Virus record (IMG/VR): IMGVR_UViG_3300040985_000156
Coordinates: 1-30,283 of that record
Strand: one strand, 5' to 3'
DNA length: 30,283 nucleotides
From: a virus
Taxonomy: Duplodnaviria; Caudoviricetes
How positions within the stretch are numbered: position 1 is the first letter of the stretch; the number at the start of each line of letters is the position of its first letter. This document shows, in pieces, positions 4,885 through 27,995 of this stretch. Position numbers and translations under genes: made by a program. The notes under the pieces were generated by a model that saw only the letters and a list, made by a program, of their open reading frames with translations, had not been told where the DNA came from and did not search any database.

Positions 4885-5137
4885 ACTTGAAAAACTAAAG
4901 GCTGCTGCTGAGGCTAAGCTGGATGCTGCTTGTGGTGCTGTTAGGGCGGCTACTGAAGATGCTCGTGATGCTGCTTGTGCTGCTTATGAGGCTGCGAAGA
5001 GGGCTGCTCGGGTTGCTTATTCCGATGCTATTGATGCTGCTATTGATACTCGTGATACTGAGCTGGATGCTGCTTGGGATACTTACTACACCGAGCTAGA
5101 TAAGATACAAGAGGAGAAACAGAATGATTTACTATGA
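4877..5137 (+). CDS. Ala/Asp-rich helical repeat peptide, MTKL family copy 2
   Basis: MTKLEKLKAA...WDTYYTELDKIQEEKQND, paralog of 4479..4664. Confidence 0.75.
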   Translation: MTKLEKLKAAAEAKLDAACGAVRAATEDARDAACAAYEAAKRAARVAYSDAIDAAIDTRDTELDAAWDTYYTELDKIQEEKQNDLL

Positions 5138-5432
5138 AGCAAAAGATTTTCCGGTTGATGGCCTGGAAGCAACTGGAGATGATGTAAAGGTTCACGTCCC
5201 CAAAGGGGCCGAATGGCGCTCTTATAATCTGTTTGGCGATCAAGACGGTTCCATAATTGTTGATGGCGCTGGTGTTGGCAATGCATATCGCGTTGGAGAT
5301 GGCAAGGGAGATGCGTATCGCTATGGCAAGGGTGCTGGCGGTGCGTGGCGCTATGGCGAGGGCCATGCGTGGCGATGGGGTGCTGGTAATGGCGGTGCGT
5401 ATCGCGATGGTGAAATTGAGGAGGACGAATGA
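5124..5432 (+). CDS. Gly-rich repeat protein (about 10-aa GxGxGxA[YW]Rx repeats, probable beta-solenoid)
   Basis: GAGVGNAYRV GDGKGDAYRY GKGAGGAWRY GEG-HAWRW GAGNGGAYRD. GAGGAG RBS. Confidence 0.75.
   Translation: MIYYEAKDFPVDGLEATGDDVKVHVPKGAEWRSYNLFGDQDGSIIVDGAGVGNAYRVGDGKGDAYRYGKGAGGAWRYGEGHAWRWGAGNGGAYRDGEIEEDE
5136..5161 (+). repeat. 26-bp direct repeat GAAGCAAAAGATTTTCCGGTTGATGG, copy 1
   Basis: Identical to 5444-5469. Confidence 0.9.
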
Positions 5433-5523
5433 TGGTCAATATAGAAGCAAAAGATTTTCCGGTTGATGGATTGGGATGCTTACACAGCTGAACTAAACAA
5501 ACAGGAGAACTCTGATGAGTAAA
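5429..5523 (+). pseudogene. Chimeric remnant: start of a Gly-repeat paralog fused out of frame to the end of an MTKL-family paralog
   Basis: MMVNIEAKDFPVDG matches the N-terminus of the 5124 gene and stops at 5491. Another frame reads WDAYTAELNKQENSDE*, matching the C-termini of the 4479 and 4877 genes. Confidence 0.65.
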
Positions 5524-5640
5524 CTAGCTACATACATAATATATAAGGCGATTGTATGGATGGCCAGTTTAATCAAACTGTGGCGCAATCTGGTAAACGC
5601 TTCAACCAACTATAGACCCTGCAAACCAATCCCGTGGTAA
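5515..5640 (+). CDS. Possible 41-aa peptide (MSKLATYII...), overlapping structured element 1
   Basis: AGGAG RBS and an open frame, but it may be an accidental ORF following the repeated junction. Confidence 0.3.
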   Translation: MSKLATYIIYKAIVWMASLIKLWRNLVNASTNYRPCKPIPW

Positions 5641-5684
5641 GTGCAAAGACGAAAGCTGTTGTTAAGGTTAAGCCATCCATACAA
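5552..5684. ncRNA. Candidate structured RNA 1 (multi-branched, closed by a 13-bp perfect stem)
   Basis: TTGTATGGATGGC (5552-5564) / GCCATCCATACAA (5672-5684). Inner hairpins CAGTTT-AATC-AAACTG and ACCA-ATCCCG-TGGT, plus a tRNA D-arm-like TGGCGCAATCTGGTAAACGC. Confidence 0.5.
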
Positions 5685-5691
5685 AAGTTCG

Positions 5692-5755
5692 TGTGGTCAG
5701 GTTGTTAGATTCCATCAACGCACTCTATCAAGTGTTAAAAGAAAACCCGACCACA
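5692..5755. ncRNA. Candidate structured RNA 2 or terminator-like element
   Basis: TGTGGTCAGGTT (5692-5703) / AACCCGACCACA (5744-5755), 11 of 12 paired. Inner hairpin GCACT-CTATCA-AGTGT. Confidence 0.4.
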
Positions 5756-5760
5756 AGTAT

Positions 5761-6216
5761 TTATACCATCAGCTCGAAGTGAGGTCCATCAATAAATGGA
5801 CGACGGCCCTGTGATCTACGCAAATCAATGTAAGCGTTCATTGCTTCTTCCATCGTGCCATCCCAAGAACCGATGTCATCAATCTGCCATGCTGCACCCC
5901 AGCGAACCTTGCAGCCAACAGCGTTAGCTCCCTCTTTCATGGCGTCAGCAAGATCATCATAGACGTTAAGCTCCCATGACCCACGCCCACCAATGTAAGC
6001 CATAAGATCAACGGCGTTGCCGTCTAAGTGCTTGGACTTCATAGTCTGTGACGCACCCTTGGCCACTAGCTCTTTCTGCATTTCAATTGTTCTCATGCCT
6101 TGGATGACACCGAAGTCTATCTTGGTTGCTGTGATAGCGTGCTTGACGACAGCAACTAGCCGCTCGTCAACACCTTCCAACTTATCAAGGCTGCGCTGTG
6201 ATAATTTAAAGCTCAT
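5761..6216 (-). CDS. Endolysin, peptidase M15 (L-Ala-D-Glu endopeptidase type)
   Basis: SQRSLDKLEGV, GMRT..Q, SKHLDGNAVDL (Zn ligands H, D), WGAAW and DGPHFEL. Confidence 0.92.
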   Translation of the reverse strand: MSFKLSQRSLDKLEGVDERLVAVVKHAITATKIDFGVIQGMRTIEMQKELVAKGASQTMKSKHLDGNAVDLMAYIGGRGSWELNVYDDLADAMKEGANAVGCKVRWGAAWQIDDIGSWDGTMEEAMNAYIDLRRSQGRRPFIDGPHFELMV

Positions 6217-6557
6217 TTCTTAAACCCTTTCATGGTTCTTATGCCGAAGCTGGCGGCAATACTTGCATACATGGCCCACTGAAACCAGCTTGGCGCTCGC
6301 TCAAGGTTGGCAAATCCCTCAGCCATGTACGGCTGCAGCGGAGGAATGAAGCTGCCTAACACTATGATAATAAAGCATATTGTCCACGCTTCATCCTTCC
6401 AACTGTCCTTGCTGGCCTCGATAGCTGCTTGCTCCCAAGAGATTTCACCAGTGGCGATTTTCATCTTGGTTTCAGCTTCTGCTGCTTTAACCTTTGCCTT
6501 GCTGTCTATCTGTGCTGTCACCAGCCCAATAACACTGCTTGCTATCTGCCCAATCAT
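6213..6557 (-). CDS. Holin-like membrane protein (3TM-holin-like)
   Basis: SWKDEAWT, hydrophobic segments and a C-terminal ASFGIR. Directly upstream of the endolysin with ATGA overlap. Confidence 0.7.
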   Translation of the reverse strand: MIGQIASSVIGLVTAQIDSKAKVKAAEAETKMKIATGEISWEQAAIEASKDSWKDEAWTICFIIIVLGSFIPPLQPYMAEGFANLERAPSWFQWAMYASIAASFGIRTMKGFKK

Positions 6558-6853
6558 TGGCCTTTCCCCATGTTAGTAAAGCCGTAGTAAGCACCAACGA
6601 TAGCTGCGATAGACACATAGTAAATGTTACTCATGCTCGACAGCATCTGGCTAGCCTGCGGTAGTCCCATCCATTCAGCGAAGACAACACCGAAGGGGAA
6701 CACAAGCATCCCTGTCAGTGAGAACCAAGCCATGCGGCGCTGCGCATCCCGCTTAGCGTCAGCGTCTTCCATCTTACGGCGACGATCCTCGAGCATAATC
6801 TCACGCTCTTCCGGATCAAGCACCCCGTTCCCATTCAAGTCATACTCATTCAT
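6554..6853 (-). CDS. Two-TM membrane protein with an N-terminal EF-hand-like loop (holin/antiholin-like)
   Basis: DLNGNGVLDPEE 12-residue EF loop, QRRMAW followed by a TM segment, second TM ending in GAYYG. Confidence 0.65.
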   Translation of the reverse strand: MNEYDLNGNGVLDPEEREIMLEDRRRKMEDADAKRDAQRRMAWFSLTGMLVFPFGVVFAEWMGLPQASQMLSSMSNIYYVSIAAIVGAYYGFTNMGKGQ

Positions 6854-7266
6854 AGCGGTTTTCCTAACTCATCTATGGCGTCCCACGTACTGTCGAGGTC
6901 TGCCTTTAATTGTTTCAGCTTATCGTCGATGCCATCAGTAATTAGCTCGGCGCGTTCGACCTTGCTGCGGAGATCAAGCAACGTCTTCTGTTGCTCAAGG
7001 ATACTCACCATCTGTGTACTGATCTGAGATAGTTGAGTATTTAATCCAGCCACATTGTTCTCACCGATGGTTTGCTCAAGTGCCTGAATCCGTGAGGTTG
7101 CTGCGATAACTTCGTTGACAGATTTTTCCACTCCCCAGAAACGATTAACCACATCGTACCCGTAGTAAATACCACCACTAAGAGAGCCAAGAAGAGGAAG
7201 GGCAGCAGCAAGATACACTCCCTTAAACGTAAACCCGCCAACCTTGAGTTCTGTTTCATCCGCCAT
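6850..7266 (-). CDS. Membrane-anchored coiled-coil protein
   Basis: One N-proximal TM (VYLAAALPLLGSLSGGIYYGY) followed by about 95 aa with a heptad pattern. Confidence 0.75.
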   Translation of the reverse strand: MADETELKVGGFTFKGVYLAAALPLLGSLSGGIYYGYDVVNRFWGVEKSVNEVIAATSRIQALEQTIGENNVAGLNTQLSQISTQMVSILEQQKTLLDLRSKVERAELITDGIDDKLKQLKADLDSTWDAIDELGKPL

Positions 7267-8029
7267 ACGCTATGCCTGCGCTGTAGATGTCGTCCGCAGT
7301 TTTAAACTCGCCACTCAAGAAGCCTTCAAACCCAACAGCAGCCCAGCCATTGTTCTGATTAGTGTAGAAATCCATAAGCAAGAGGTCGGATGTGGCGTCG
7401 TAAGTTACGGTGTTGTACGAGGCTACCGAGATATTGTTCTGCGCAGCCCAGTTATCAGTCCAAGATGTGATCTGCGTGTTGTTAGACGCAGCTAGGAAAC
7501 CAGCCGCCTCCTGCGCATACGCCTCCACATCAGCCAGCGCTGTGTTGTATTCCTCAACATCCGCGTCCGTGACGGACATATCAGTGGTGGAGACCGCTTG
7601 CTGCACGTCCATTTGCTCTTGAACAGTATCAGCCTCCGCAGCCATCTCAGCTACCGCACCGACAGTTGCAAACGTAGTAGTCGCATCGACCAATGCATCA
7701 ATTGCCACCGACATATTATCCAGAGCCAAATCAGCTTGGTCCTCTAGCAGCATGGACGTGTTGTAATACTGGGCGCTCTGCACATCAGTTAGCGCGTCGT
7801 TGTATGCAGACACCATTTGAACATTCAACTGAGCCGCTGTGATCGACCCGTCAGGTGCAATGCCGCCGATACCGGCGTAGTAATTAGCCCCCGTTGCCAG
7901 TGTCCGTGATAACCTCACTTGATCCATCAGGTTGTCCGCTGCTGTTGCCAAGTTGCTGATTGTCTGGTCCGCTACGGCGGCGGAACCTGTCAGACAAAGA
8001 AGGCTGGTTCCGATTACTTGCTTCCACAT
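7256..8029 (-). CDS. Secreted acidic alpha-helical protein of unknown function
   Basis: Signal peptide MWKQVIGTSLLCLTGSAAVA|DQ with AAGGA RBS. The mature chain is Ala/Asp-rich and nearly free of K/R. Confidence 0.75.
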   Translation of the reverse strand: MWKQVIGTSLLCLTGSAAVADQTISNLATAADNLMDQVRLSRTLATGANYYAGIGGIAPDGSITAAQLNVQMVSAYNDALTDVQSAQYYNTSMLLEDQADLALDNMSVAIDALVDATTTFATVGAVAEMAAEADTVQEQMDVQQAVSTTDMSVTDADVEEYNTALADVEAYAQEAAGFLAASNNTQITSWTDNWAAQNNISVASYNTVTYDATSDLLLMDFYTNQNNGWAAVGFEGFLSGEFKTADDIYSAGIAYGG

Positions 8030-8615
8030 CAGGTAAGTCCTTTCCAATCATAAGTATTGCGTTCCAAAACGCTGTGCTCTCGCTGTACCCAACAACGAAT
8101 AGAGAAGGGTTGGACCTATACTTAACGAAAGCATCGCGTCCAATTAGCAATCGACCTGTAGCCACATCCATAATGGGGCAAGGTGTATTGGCTAATGCCA
8201 TAGCTCTGAACACGCGAGGCTCAGAACACATTACTGAAATACCAGAGACCTGCAGGCCCAGTCCACCAACAGCTTGCGGTGCGCCCATCAGCCTTGCGTC
8301 TTTACGCCTGTTGCATTGCTTGTCTTGCTCCATCGTCCCCTTGGCTATGCCAAACAAACTAACTTGGAATCCCTGTGAAGTGGGGATCAAGCAACTATCG
8401 TTACCTCCACCGCCCATCATGGTAGGTGCCATAGCTGTAGGTACAGGATTGCCCGTAACACCCTGCCCGCCGTTGTTGGTTACAGAGTTAGAGGTGTTGT
8501 TACTGTCAACATTAGAGCCAGCACCGATGTTGGTGTTGAGGTCTCCGTTAATATCTTGGGCAAAACATGGAGATGCCAGCAATATTATGGATAAGGCAAC
8601 GCGCTTAATTCGCAT
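7884..8615 (-). CDS. Secreted Cys-containing protein of unknown function
   Basis: Signal peptide MRIKRVALSIILLASPCFA|Q, Asn/Ser-rich linker, PVPTAMAP, then SC...C..RK...MC...TPCP. GGAGG RBS. Confidence 0.8.
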   Translation of the reverse strand: MRIKRVALSIILLASPCFAQDINGDLNTNIGAGSNVDSNNTSNSVTNNGGQGVTGNPVPTAMAPTMMGGGGNDSCLIPTSQGFQVSLFGIAKGTMEQDKQCNRRKDARLMGAPQAVGGLGLQVSGISVMCSEPRVFRAMALANTPCPIMDVATGRLLIGRDAFVKYRSNPSLFVVGYSESTAFWNAILMIGKDLPDVEASNRNQPSLSDRFRRRSGPDNQQLGNSSGQPDGSSEVITDTGNGG

Positions 8616-8824
8616 TGGACCTCCAGAACGTCTCTTATCTTAGCGTCATGGCACATAATAACGAGACCAGCATCGGGATACCCCATATTAGCAAGCGTCT
8701 CTGCATTTTTTCTAGCTTCACAAACTGCCTCACCCATACACACTGAAGGAAAAAGCATAGGGGTCTGGTTGTCTACCGTAGTGCAAGCGCCGAGAGCAAG
8801 CACAGGCAGTAGACGAATAATCAT
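8585..8824 (-). CDS. Small lipoprotein
   Basis: Lipobox LALGA|C at residue 14 and four further Cys. ATGA overlap with the upstream gene. Confidence 0.75.
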   Translation of the reverse strand: MIIRLLPVLALGACTTVDNQTPMLFPSVCMGEAVCEARKNAETLANMGYPDAGLVIMCHDAKIRDVLEVQCELSALPYP

Positions 8825-9015
8825 CCGACCTTCATCAAGACAGCAAAGAGAAGGCCGATAATAGAACCGGTAGCAGCAAGCATGATACTTTCCATGCGCT
8901 TAACCCGACCAAATAAATCTTTAAACTGAATCTTAACTTCAGTTTTTATGGCGATGACCTCTTTCTCAAGTCCATCAATGCGCTCATGCGCAGAAGCTAC
9001 CGTTCTCTTATCCAT
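8821..9015 (-). CDS. XhlA-like small membrane protein (coiled coil plus C-terminal TM)
   Basis: AHERIDGLE...RVKRMESIMLAATGSIIGLLFAVL. GAGG RBS. Confidence 0.65.
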   Translation of the reverse strand: MDKRTVASAHERIDGLEKEVIAIKTEVKIQFKDLFGRVKRMESIMLAATGSIIGLLFAVLMKVG

Positions 9016-9442: not shown

Positions 9443-9924
9443 TAGGAAATCCTTACCCATAGTCCTGGCATGCCCTTACCATTGGCCGCACCTGCGCCGC
9501 CCAAGTGCCTCCAAGTGCCCGATACAGATGTTTGGTTAGGTGACTGGTTCCAGCCATTATCATAAAATCCTTGCCCACCATATGCATCAATATTACTAGT
9601 AATTGCAAAAAGACTTGATGCAGTAACATCTAGGTTATAATCTGTTGAGTTTGCGGGCCTACCCCAGATGTGAGTCCCAACAGCACCGAAGGTTGTACTA
9701 GCACCAACACCAGTCAGGGCAGAACCATCAATAGCTGGTAATGCTCCTGTAAGGTTAGCTGCTGTTAAAGATGATGACGACTGCAAGGCTGTATTTGCCA
9801 AGGCACCCTGTGCTGCTGTAGCCAAGCCAGTCAAAGAGGAACCATTGCCTGTCATCCCATTGGGAAAGTCGGGTGCGCCTGAGCCAGCTTCGTCTGTGAT
9901 TGTATCTACTTTGATTGTACTCAT
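9442..9924 (-). CDS. Short tail fibre / receptor-binding subunit
   Basis: MSTIKVDTI anchor, ATAAQGALA stalk motif, GALPAIDGSALTG, and a C-terminal GAVGT...GTWR..G...LWVRIS tip. Confidence 0.75.
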   Translation of the reverse strand: MSTIKVDTITDEAGSGAPDFPNGMTGNGSSLTGLATAAQGALANTALQSSSSLTAANLTGALPAIDGSALTGVGASTTFGAVGTHIWGRPANSTDYNLDVTASSLFAITSNIDAYGGQGFYDNGWNQSPNQTSVSGTWRHLGGAGAANGKGMPGLWVRIS

Positions 9925-11147
9925 TAGACTACCTCCTCGCCAATAAGGGTTACAGTTGTTCCGCCGTCCATAGTGTAGAACTCATAGGTGTGCCTTTTAT
10001 CAATAGAGAGTGCCTGTGCGGGAGTATTCTCAACAGAGGCTGGAAGGGTTACTGTTGAGGCAGTGCCTAGGCCATACTCAAGAATACTATCAACCCCACT
10101 ACCTGCAATGTACATCTTTGTACCATCAGGTTTGAAGAATACACCGTGAGGGTATGACTCTTGAAAAGCTAAAGAGAAGTTCTGTAAGTAGGCTGCTGTA
10201 GAGACATCCCAAGCTGTGCCTAAGTCATACTCACTAACAGTACCTGTGAGACTACCTACCATATACATCTTTAAGCCATCAGGTTTGAAGAAGACACCTC
10301 TAGGGGCTGTATCTTGAGTAGCTACAGATTTAGCCTGTGAGAAAGAAGCTGTAGTTACATTCCAAGCTGTACTTAAGTCATACTCATTAACGTCATCTCC
10401 AGCAGTCCCTACAACATACATCTTAGTGCCATCAGGTTTAAAGAAGATACCTGTAGGGCTTGTCTCTTGATTAGATACAAAGAATAGCTGTAAGTAAGAA
10501 GCTGTAGTGACATCCCAAGCTGTGCTTAGGTTGTACTCATAAACAGCATCTCCGGTAGCACCTATCACGTACATCTTTGTACCATCGGGTTTAAAGAATA
10601 CACCATCGGGGTTTGCATCTTGAGTAGATACAGAGAAGTTCTGCAAGTAAGAAGCCGTAGAGACGTCCCAAGCTGTACTTAGGTTGTACTCGTTAACAGC
10701 ATCTCCAGCATTCCCTACCATGTACATCTTTGTACCATCAGGTTTGAAGAATACACCAGTTGGGGATGTCCCTTGAGTAACTACAGATTTAGCCTGTGAA
10801 AAGACTGCTGTAGTTGCATCCCATTCACCTGATAGACGAGATGGCTTAAAGCTATAACGCCAGTTAGCATTAGTAGGTACTGAAGCAAAACTAACAGTTG
10901 TGTTAGCTGTTAAGGCACCCTGACTAAAGAAGTTATAGGCTCCTACATCAAGTGAAGGTGTAGCACCTGACACAGCTACAGGCTTGAACGAGTCAACACC
11001 TGTAAGCCCTGAGCCATCGCCTGTAGTTGTAAGCAACTCACCAGCACTATCAGGCAGAGTGAGTGTACGGTTGGTATCACTGTCAGGGGCGGCAAGAGTG
11101 AACGTACCTGTCCCCGATGAATTAGGTGTTAAGGCTATCTTGCTCAT
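9924..11147 (-). CDS. Tail fibre / RBP with five beta-propeller (NHL/YVTN-like) repeats
   Basis: N-anchor SGTGTFTLAAP..NRTLTLPD and five 49-aa repeats P.G[VI]FFKPDG.KMY..G.....EY.L.TAWDV. Confidence 0.8.
   Translation of the reverse strand: MSKIALTPNSSGTGTFTLAAPDSDTNRTLTLPDSAGELLTTTGDGSGLTGVDSFKPVAVSGATPSLDVGAYNFFSQGALTANTTVSFASVPTNANWRYSFKPSRLSGEWDATTAVFSQAKSVVTQGTSPTGVFFKPDGTKMYMVGNAGDAVNEYNLSTAWDVSTASYLQNFSVSTQDANPDGVFFKPDGTKMYVIGATGDAVYEYNLSTAWDVTTASYLQLFFVSNQETSPTGIFFKPDGTKMYVVGTAGDDVNEYDLSTAWNVTTASFSQAKSVATQDTAPRGVFFKPDGLKMYMVGSLTGTVSEYDLGTAWDVSTAAYLQNFSLAFQESYPHGVFFKPDGTKMYIAGSGVDSILEYGLGTASTVTLPASVENTPAQALSIDKRHTYEFYTMDGGTTVTLIGEEVV
10070..10825 (-). repeat. Five diverged 147-bp coding repeats (propeller blades)
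   Basis: Recurrent TACATCTTTGTACCATC.GGTTT.AAGAA and CCCAAGCTGT blocks at 147-bp spacing. Boundaries approximate. Confidence 0.85.
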
Positions 11148-11404
11148 GCTGAAGGCTCCTGCGGCCAAGTGATTGTGTCGGGGAAACCAGACTGCGCAGG
11201 TACATCCCGTAGAGCCTGACGGTATGTTGTCATCTCTGCTGTCATCGTTACGTCACTGTTAGCTGTCCAGTCTGTTGCAGCTAGTAGATTGTCTCGTTTA
11301 CCACGAACCTCATCTTCAGTTGGGGGATGCTGTACGGTAACACCAAGGTGCTGCTCTTCTGTGACCTCAACAGACACCCCGTCTATAAAATGCGTGTATG
11401 TCAT
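11144..11404 (-). CDS. Tail fibre assembly chaperone (short form)
   Basis: VRGKRDNLLAATDW...YRQALRDVPAQSGFPDTITWP. Confidence 0.85.
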   Translation of the reverse strand: MTYTHFIDGVSVEVTEEQHLGVTVQHPPTEDEVRGKRDNLLAATDWTANSDVTMTAEMTTYRQALRDVPAQSGFPDTITWPQEPSA

Positions 11405-27595: not shown

Positions 27596-27868
27596 TTATC
27601 CTTTTTTGTGACGATTGGCGAAGTTACGCGCCGCATCAACAGATCCAAAACCCCATGCTTTCAAGGCTAATGCCTTGCGGGTTGGTTCACCCTTATCATC
27701 CTTCATCGGACCTTTCATTCCAGCGAACCTAGCAGCAAAGCTAACACGCCGAGGATTGGTCCCTGTCTTTACAGGAGACTTTAGATTGCCTCCGTCTTTC
27801 TTTTCAAAGTGCTTGCGGCCAGCTTCATTGAGGCCACCCGCAGGGTTTTGAAACGCTTTCTTAACCAT
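27596..27868 (-). CDS. Basic conserved phage protein (DUF6321-like)
   Basis: GGLNEAGRK...NLKSPV...PRRVSFAARF.GMKGPMKD..G.PTRKALALKAW. Confidence 0.75.
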   Translation of the reverse strand: MVKKAFQNPAGGLNEAGRKHFEKKDGGNLKSPVKTGTNPRRVSFAARFAGMKGPMKDDKGEPTRKALALKAWGFGSVDAARNFANRHKKG

Positions 27869-27872
27869 GATA

Positions 27873-27995
27873 TTACTTCTTGGCTTTAGGCTTCGGTGTT
27901 TTCTTAGGTGCAACAACCTTAACTGGTGCAGCCTCCTTTACCATTACTGGCTTGGGACGGTTGTGAATGCGGGTGTCAGATTTAATTTGAGTCAT
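27873..27995 (-). CDS. Small Lys/Pro-rich peptide (40 aa)
   Basis: MTQIKSDTRIHNRPKPVMVKEAAPVKVVAPKKTPKPKAKK, with GGAAGG upstream. Fills the gap and is below the track cutoff. Confidence 0.6.
   Translation of the reverse strand: MTQIKSDTRIHNRPKPVMVKEAAPVKVVAPKKTPKPKAKK

Follow-up and report, generated by a model that had tools for sequence, protein, structure and literature searches.

Among the described systems closest to the locus analyzed here are phage spanins and phage-encoded secretion operons. In two-component spanins, the gene of the outer-membrane partner (o-spanin) is embedded in, overlaps or lies near that of the inner-membrane partner (i-spanin), and a Cys-free i-spanin is commonly combined with a Cys-bearing o-spanin (excerpts of PMC6139136). 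Unimolecular spanins unite a lipobox and a C-terminal transmembrane (TM) helix in one chain without periplasmic Cys (excerpts of PMC6139136 and PMC6775973), and cobavirus spanins are described with a lipoprotein N-terminus and a C-terminal TM (excerpts of PMC6775973). About 15% of phages have no spanins, according to part of 10.1101/515445. For the curli operons of phages, roles in lysis, import and sibling capture have been proposed (excerpts of PMC9004378 and PMC9599517). Here we report on four genes, A to D (positions 6850–8824, minus strand), of the virus record IMGVR_UViG_3300040985_000156; the window is the whole 30,283-nt stretch that was analyzed. We show that A-B-C-D is one of several alleles of a late cassette that is optional and swappable. 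As to its function, the evidence leaves us evenly divided on whether the cassette is a trans-envelope anchor or display device, in which B would form a ring in the outer membrane, A would seat it, D would tether it and C would be carried.

An optional late cassette with exchangeable genes

The record that makes up the window is linear and 92% complete, and its late region, on the minus strand, is of the T7-like podovirus type. According to Pfam and PHROGs, this region runs from portal, scaffold and capsid through tail tubes, internal proteins and fibers to A-B-C-D, which is followed by two membrane proteins and an M15-type endolysin. Gene A (8585–8824) encodes a 79-aa predicted lipoprotein with the lipobox LGA/C at Cys14, Thr at +2 and four further Cys. 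Gene B (7884–8615) encodes a 243-aa predicted exported protein composed of an N/S/T/G-rich linker, a PxxxAxAP segment, a Cys-clamped beta-hairpin and a helical body. The product of gene C (7256–8029) is a 257-aa predicted exported acidic protein (net charge −29), modeled as helical hairpins with a C-terminal three-stranded sheet, and that of gene D (6850–7266) is a 138-aa protein with an N-terminal predicted membrane helix, a coiled coil and a C-terminal KPL/NPL motif. For C we used an ATG start with a purine-rich upstream site; the open reading frame (ORF) tool instead starts at TTG, 8047. Judged from sequence inspection and hydropathy, an N-terminal hydrophobic stretch is present in 95 of 118 B homologues, and the membrane helix of D is weak in the window (best 19-residue Kyte-Doolittle value 1.35; family median 1.69).

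The four cassette genes are more than chance ORFs: their order is conserved, and they evolve under purifying selection. The values of dN/dS were 0.07–0.31 in 10 of 12 comparisons, dS being saturated in the other two. Among sequencing runs, none of RNA was listed as holding the sequence. The order A-B-C-D is shared by two Roseobacter phages, CRP-810 and CRP-207, and by ct7L0027; in each of the 27 IMG/VR loci that B retrieved, this gene is preceded by an A-like one. The initial annotation had described four overlapped genes at this place, all predicted to be envelope-targeted, and this description holds: all four ORFs are there on the minus strand, the gene order recurs, and the lipobox and export signals are predicted. 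Calculated from the coordinates, the overlaps along the series 64-aa gene, A, B, C, D and 99-aa gene are 4, 31, 146, 11 and 4 nt. Searches of Pfam, PHROGs and PDB sequences gave no function for A to D and no Pfam family for any of them; B matches phrog_20531, a family of unknown function. PF21827 matched 3 of 134 B rows, which we attribute to low complexity.

The allelic structure became apparent from 116 loci with a B match, chosen by likeness to marine B types; figures for linkage to D exclude stand-alone B. A D homologue was found in 83 of the 116 loci and in all 71 with at least 4 kb downstream. In each of the 71 loci with enough flank, B is the first and D the last cassette gene, and the middle genes vary. 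The C-terminus [NKS]P[LFM] is shared by 82 of 83 members of the D family. In the first allele (24 loci) C is the middle gene. The second, B-X-D, has a single large exported middle protein with an acidic linker, annotated as "putative carbohydrate binding" in HTVC033P and MedDCM-OCT-S28-C10. The third has six genes, B-F2-F3-F4-F5-D, with F3 to F5 present in 43–52 loci. A was seen only with the C-type allele. In place of the fixed four-gene unit assumed initially, the data thus show a B...D frame with exchangeable middle genes. Homology of C to F2 and of F5 to B, considered as candidates, was not borne out by hhalign.

The B family is abundant, with an estimated ~8,100 IMG/VR stretches and 389 clusters at 50% identity. 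The phages carrying the cassette span T7-like podoviruses, other marine tailed phages and one T4-like myovirus, and cultured SAR11 and Roseobacter phages carry the B family, their cassette genes being labeled hypothetical, "OmpA family" or "lysozyme". The "lysozyme" label on the D homologues of CRP-810 and CRP-207 (L001:7351-7773; L003:3292-3873) found no Pfam or PHROGs support. The words "OmpA" and "lysozyme" are absent from the main text of the CRP-810 paper (PMC11288001). The closest cultured portal is that of Methylophilales phage MEP301 (64%), which has no cassette; unlike the portal, the window's cassette has its closest counterparts in Roseobacter phages. The literature searches listed no paper that describes the cassette; gene tables accompanying the reports of CRP-810, CRP-207 and pelagiphages, or virion proteomes, may bear on its novelty.

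The same slot was compared in 22 relatives picked by portal, 7 of which are at least 90% complete; 3 of these 7 carry B. In G002 and G004 (portal 94% identical), a six-gene allele stands between the same two flanking genes as A-B-C-D of the window. G001 (portal 99%), G006 (94%) and G009 (86%) have neither the cassette nor a credible lipoprotein candidate, and a 155–158-aa protein occupies the slot. G008 (76%) carries B-C-D with A missing, and the sequence of G012 ends inside the slot. The downstream membrane proteins and endolysin are kept in the cassette-free relatives, G001 and G009 having other endolysin types. Using the window's endolysin as query, we examined the best 80 of at least 599 loci and found a cassette gene in none; 49 of the 80 had more than 3 kb upstream, and the lipobox matches in 10 of them were 44–74-aa ORFs judged to be shadow frames. 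Because three close relatives and the endolysin-fetched loci are without cassette genes, the cassette is optional. Its position after the tail-fiber genes in many genomes could suggest virion proteins, that is, fiber, spike or ejection parts. We find this scarcely credible, since the products have signal-peptide-like N-termini and a lipobox, the same cassette occurs across the three phage groups named above, and it is absent from the relative with the 99% identical portal.

Anatomy and predicted assembly of B

The model of B, built from 134 rows (mean pLDDT 75.6), places strands at residues 76–85 and 88–97, forming a hairpin that is followed by helices. The hairpin region (residues 75–101; 8313–8393, minus strand) lies between the invariant Cys75 and Cys101, and two further invariant cysteines, Cys130 and Cys146, are in the helices. 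The C-x25-C spacing is kept in 131 of the 134 rows. One face of the hairpin is nearly invariant G/S/A, with 91–100% of these residues at positions 80, 82, 89, 91 and 93. The tip (83, 87, 88, 90) is hydrophobic and the base of the other face is mixed. The N-terminal linker varies from 15 to 184 residues, a median of 67% of which are N/S/T/Q/G (112 of 134 rows measured). No match to the fold was found in the PDB (Foldseek, none at E 0.001; best by VIA with Z 2.6, a root-mean-square deviation (rmsd) of 4.6 and 48 aligned), which does not prove a new fold; otherwise, the fold search gave only uncharacterized viral proteins.

Comparison of the two exported Cys proteins indicated a common origin. 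The B profile matches A at 8630–8722 (E 5.8e-8), and hhalign aligns A with B at a probability of 97% (E 8.9e-11). By these alignments, A is a B paralogue: the helical core without the beta-hairpin, placed on a lipid anchor.

B is predicted to self-associate head to tail, with neighboring hairpins in contact. A four-copy model of residues 52–200 scored 0.75, compared to 0.01 for the best of three controls, with pLDDT of at least 75 and at least 87% of contacts shared among runs; four is the number of copies chosen, not a predicted stoichiometry. Of proteins solved as pairs, 20 of 30 reached the mark used for such scores, as did 1 of 23 among those solved as single chains; here these counts are only rough. 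The B-B contacts use two different faces and include residues 78, 82 and 84 of one copy and 89–97 of another. Since two faces and hairpin residues are involved, the contacts would fit a ring with a shared barrel. In line with what has been proposed for phage CsgG, such rings might be open outer-membrane pores serving nutrient import or export; the predicted head-to-tail association and the G/S/A-lined hairpin face agree with this, and import is one role proposed for phage curli pores (excerpts of PMC9599517). Yet helix 99–111 packs on the same helix of neighboring copies in the four-copy model, suggesting a narrow axis, and no linked transporter or substrate gene was found, making an open pore very improbable in our view.

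Homologues of B also occur outside the cassette. A plasmid gene of Novosphingobium humi (L149:5422-6690) encodes, in this order, a signal peptide, an S/T/N-rich region, the B core, a Pro linker and an OmpA domain (PF00691, E 1.5e-17). Since the OmpA domain binds peptidoglycan, the helical end of B would point into the periplasm, with the hairpin at the outer membrane. The "OmpA family" label given to CRP-810 gp53 may derive from fusions of this kind. Ralstonia phage RSP15 has a stand-alone B (ORF122, L147:5374-6321) with a long Gly/Asn/Gln-rich N-terminus, adjoining a tRNA cluster, and no other cassette gene was found in its 6-kb flanks. In bacteria, B gave 2 strong matches (3 in all) among 401 genomes sampled from the class of a Nitratireductor genome, and other cassette genes were not found within ~1.5-kb flanks of the alphaproteobacterial stand-alone B. 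Two bacterial stand-alone B genes with Asn-rich repeats (L325:1006-2064, L326:1135-2085) each lie directly 3′ of a gene that by eye resembles a response-regulator receiver.

The fusion to a peptidoglycan-binding OmpA domain would also agree with action from inside the cell, with nothing displayed: the complex might fasten the outer membrane to the wall or to the inner membrane, or it might block a receptor or DNA-entry channel in the periplasm. Such reinforcement or superinfection exclusion would further suit an optional cassette, like other moron genes, and the strongly acidic C. We nevertheless hold it to be unlikely, as it leaves the pilin-like and carbohydrate-binding-like middle genes unexplained, and the late-gene position would be late for exclusion.

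Surface display and lysis as possible roles

Returning to the trans-envelope anchor or display device, the sister six-gene allele provides a link to surface structures. Its F3 matches an SCPU cluster in the ESM Atlas (PF05229 on 15% of members; score 0.95, 177 shared features), and its terminal motifs are pilin-like; a neighboring gene of the allele presumably resembles half a chaperone. F3 and F4 had no match in Pfam and PDB profile searches. The series F3-F4-F5 also occurs on Nitratireductor and Hyphomicrobiales contigs, and B was found in none of 17 bacterial genomes carrying it. Examples of the trio, which encodes pilin-like, chaperone-like and Cys-hairpin-coiled-coil proteins, are at L132:3667-4955 and 4983-6357, L129:5049-6495 and L146:5364-7216. 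Two tandem sets are present in Nitratireductor and a similar set in an integrase-bearing element of Vibrio sp. WXL210, and no usher-sized gene was seen near the bacterial trios. The bacterial F3-F4-F5 is possibly an usher-less pilus system.

By the features tested, the cassette falls outside the spanin, chaperone-usher and autotransporter families. Its sister allele shares an SCPU-like subunit with archaic Csu/SCPU chaperone-usher pili, but no pilin was found in the window's allele. No usher (~800 aa) was found in the cassette across the 116 loci, and none of the 42 window proteins has an usher Pfam match. Compared to anchors of the OmpA and trimeric-autotransporter types, B has a similar signal peptide, low-complexity N-terminal passenger and small-residue strand face, and an OmpA domain in one bacterium. 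It differs in that each chain contributes two strands, has a Cys clamp and continues beyond the hairpin into a helical body. Trimeric autotransporters end in a four-stranded anchor after a coiled coil, whereas in the B model a two-stranded hairpin lies centrally and helices come after it. B had no sequence or fold match to solved outer-membrane anchors. Like the pelagiphage and Melnitz curli operons (type VIII secretion system), the cassette is an optional exported multi-gene module moving between marine phage families, has a predicted oligomeric outer-membrane part and raises the same question of surface fiber, import or lysis (excerpts of PMC9599517 and PMC9004378). Unlike them, it relies on a B with one hairpin per subunit and an inner-membrane coiled-coil partner, D. 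CsgG, CsgF and curlin gave no Pfam match and were not in the fold-search lists, although absence from the fold list does not exclude a family.

Beyond gene content, homology and the predicted self-association of B, the following scheme is what we infer. B would be exported by Sec and then clamped by disulfides. It would close into a ring, the hairpins together making up a short barrel, its lumen lined by small residues and its hydrophobic tip embedded in the outer membrane; the helical body of B would remain periplasmic, as the OmpA fusion implies. Lipoprotein A may seat or cap the ring, and D may span the periplasm and dock through its C-terminal NPL/KPL motif. C would be the load, replaced in sister alleles by a carbohydrate-binding-like or pilin-like protein. 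An inner-to-outer membrane complex, already suggested by the initial annotation, is indeed the most natural architecture for such a module. By analogy alone to phage curli operons, the benefit would probably be an altered surface of the infected cell, which could protect it against competing phages or grazers or make it stick to new hosts ahead of burst. A bolder version, to which we subscribe only tentatively and with more doubt than belief, is that B represents a new class of oligomeric outer-membrane anchor or export ring with two strands per subunit, which together with the D tether displays interchangeable adhesins, including usher-less pili.

Several observations weigh against display. 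The outer face of the B hairpin is only partly hydrophobic, with 9–26% charged residues at positions 79, 81, 92, 94 and 96, so full spanning of the membrane stays a proposal. C shows no likeness to a pilin or known adhesin in fold searches or by hhalign: its model is mostly helical, fold searches gave generic helical matches (best Z 6.3, rmsd 2.1, 61 aligned), the ESM Atlas gave no usable match, and the comparison to F3 reached 7%. The pilin-like assignment of F3 itself draws on a single Atlas lead together with its terminal motifs. Of the 23 loci of the C-type allele, 19 have a lysin within 3 kb (8 of the 9 that are fully flanked), lysins being labeled from 150 of 204 cluster representatives on the plus strand; none of the 23 showed an Rz-like gene. 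Moreover, D aligns to the Rz-like family by hhalign (89%, E 2.3e-6), at only 10% identity.

The linkage to lysins and the alignment of D suggest a lysis accessory, a role that is conceivable, though we would not expect it to prove correct. D would then be i-spanin-like, A and/or the B ring would serve as the outer-membrane partner, with the hairpin tip as a fusion loop, and C might be a chaperone or timer. As in the two-component spanins lambda Rz/Rz1 and T4 PseT.3/PseT.2 (Kongari et al., 2018; excerpts of PMC6139136), an inner-membrane coiled coil, here D, is accompanied in the cassette by a Cys-bearing lipoprotein, here A, in the vicinity of lysis genes. D has the single N-terminal TM helix, weak in the window and stronger in the family, and the coiled coil of an i-spanin; A has the lipobox of an o-spanin, and Thr at +2 suggests outer-membrane sorting. 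A six-frame scan of the window gave A as the only lipobox candidate, in keeping with the earlier statement that no canonical Rz/Rz1 is present, for a record that is 92% complete. A lysis role would further agree with the C-terminal TM-like segment in 14 of 118 B homologues, with the common pairing of Cys-free and Cys-bearing partners (excerpts of PMC6139136) and with the share of phages that have no spanins (part of 10.1101/515445).

Likeness to known spanin families gives a mixed picture: D aligns to Rz-like proteins as described above, alignment of A to o-spanin-like proteins gave an hhalign probability of 2.7%, and no PHROG spanin match was obtained for A or D. Other properties of the cassette depart from spanins. 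In spanin pairs the o-spanin gene lies within, overlaps or directly follows the i-spanin gene. Here, by contrast, the lipoprotein is first, A lying 1.3 kb upstream of D with the exported B and C between them. D travels with B (71/71) rather than with A, which is a B paralogue and is missing in most alleles, including the B-C-D of G008. As for a unimolecular spanin, A is without a C-terminal TM and has four further Cys.

The distribution of lysins and Rz-like genes across alleles also argues against a lysis accessory. A lysin is near the six-gene allele in 13 of 42 loci (4 of 15 with full flanks) and near the B-X-D allele in 4 of 18 (3 of 6). An Rz-like gene stands beside the six-gene allele in 4 of 42 loci, and in L075 and L061 it is directly followed by an overlapping lipoprotein gene, the L075 pair being phrog_739 and phrog_812. 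The initial annotation had suggested the module as a possible non-spanin route through the envelope, with mutual exclusion from Rz/Rz1 as a test and independent homologues away from lysis genes as a refutation. A role in place of spanins finds no support: the shared B-D core fails the exclusion test, since it co-occurs with Rz/Rz1-like pairs, three near-complete close relatives dispense with both the cassette and a lipoprotein candidate, and B is alone in bacteria and in RSP15, where the 6-kb flanks hold no annotated lysis gene. For the A-B-C-D allele by itself, a lysis role is still conceivable. Finally, a pilin-like cargo has no evident use in lysis. The cassette is probably not the missing lysis step. 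The stretch after the fibers appears to host other optional genes as well, and for this reason position there would be weak evidence of function.

The two readings differ in what they would mean. Should the cassette remodel the surface of the infected cell, it would matter for aggregation, superinfection and grazing in the phage-host systems that dominate the ocean; a lysis device would bear on how spanin-less phages breach the outer membrane. If B is an anchor or export ring, it would be among the ocean's commonest phage-encoded surface machines and a new secretion route. With a three-state slot in near-identical phages and with cultured carriers such as CRP-810, CRP-207 and HTVC023P, the display and lysis readings are directly testable.

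Flanking genes and minor observations

Upstream, the slot is bounded in close relatives by the gene of a 64-aa membrane protein (8821–9015, minus strand). Downstream (5761–6853, minus strand) are genes for 99-aa and 114-aa membrane proteins and the M15-type endolysin. Of the labels first given to these neighbors, that of the endolysin is confirmed (phrog_465), and "XhlA-like" (8821–9015) and "holin" (6213–6557) found no support in Pfam or PHROGs. The 99-aa protein (6554–6853) has two hydrophobic segments; its family occurs in 36 of the 116 B loci and is kept where the cassette is lost. We take its N-terminal loop to be EF-hand-like, possibly that of a calcium-sensing lysis regulator.

The 155–158-aa protein that fills the slot in cassette-free relatives (L311:75-542, L317:5447-5923, L321:6336-6809) has a hydrophobic N-terminal helix, a coiled coil and a C-terminal TM, and is a candidate lysis-region protein in its own right. 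A similar family, F15, adjoins the cassette in other loci. Elsewhere in the window, positions 9924–11168 encode a repeat-rich beta-propeller-like fiber protein, present in two copies in G001, and positions 27596–27916 encode a small basic DUF6321 protein.

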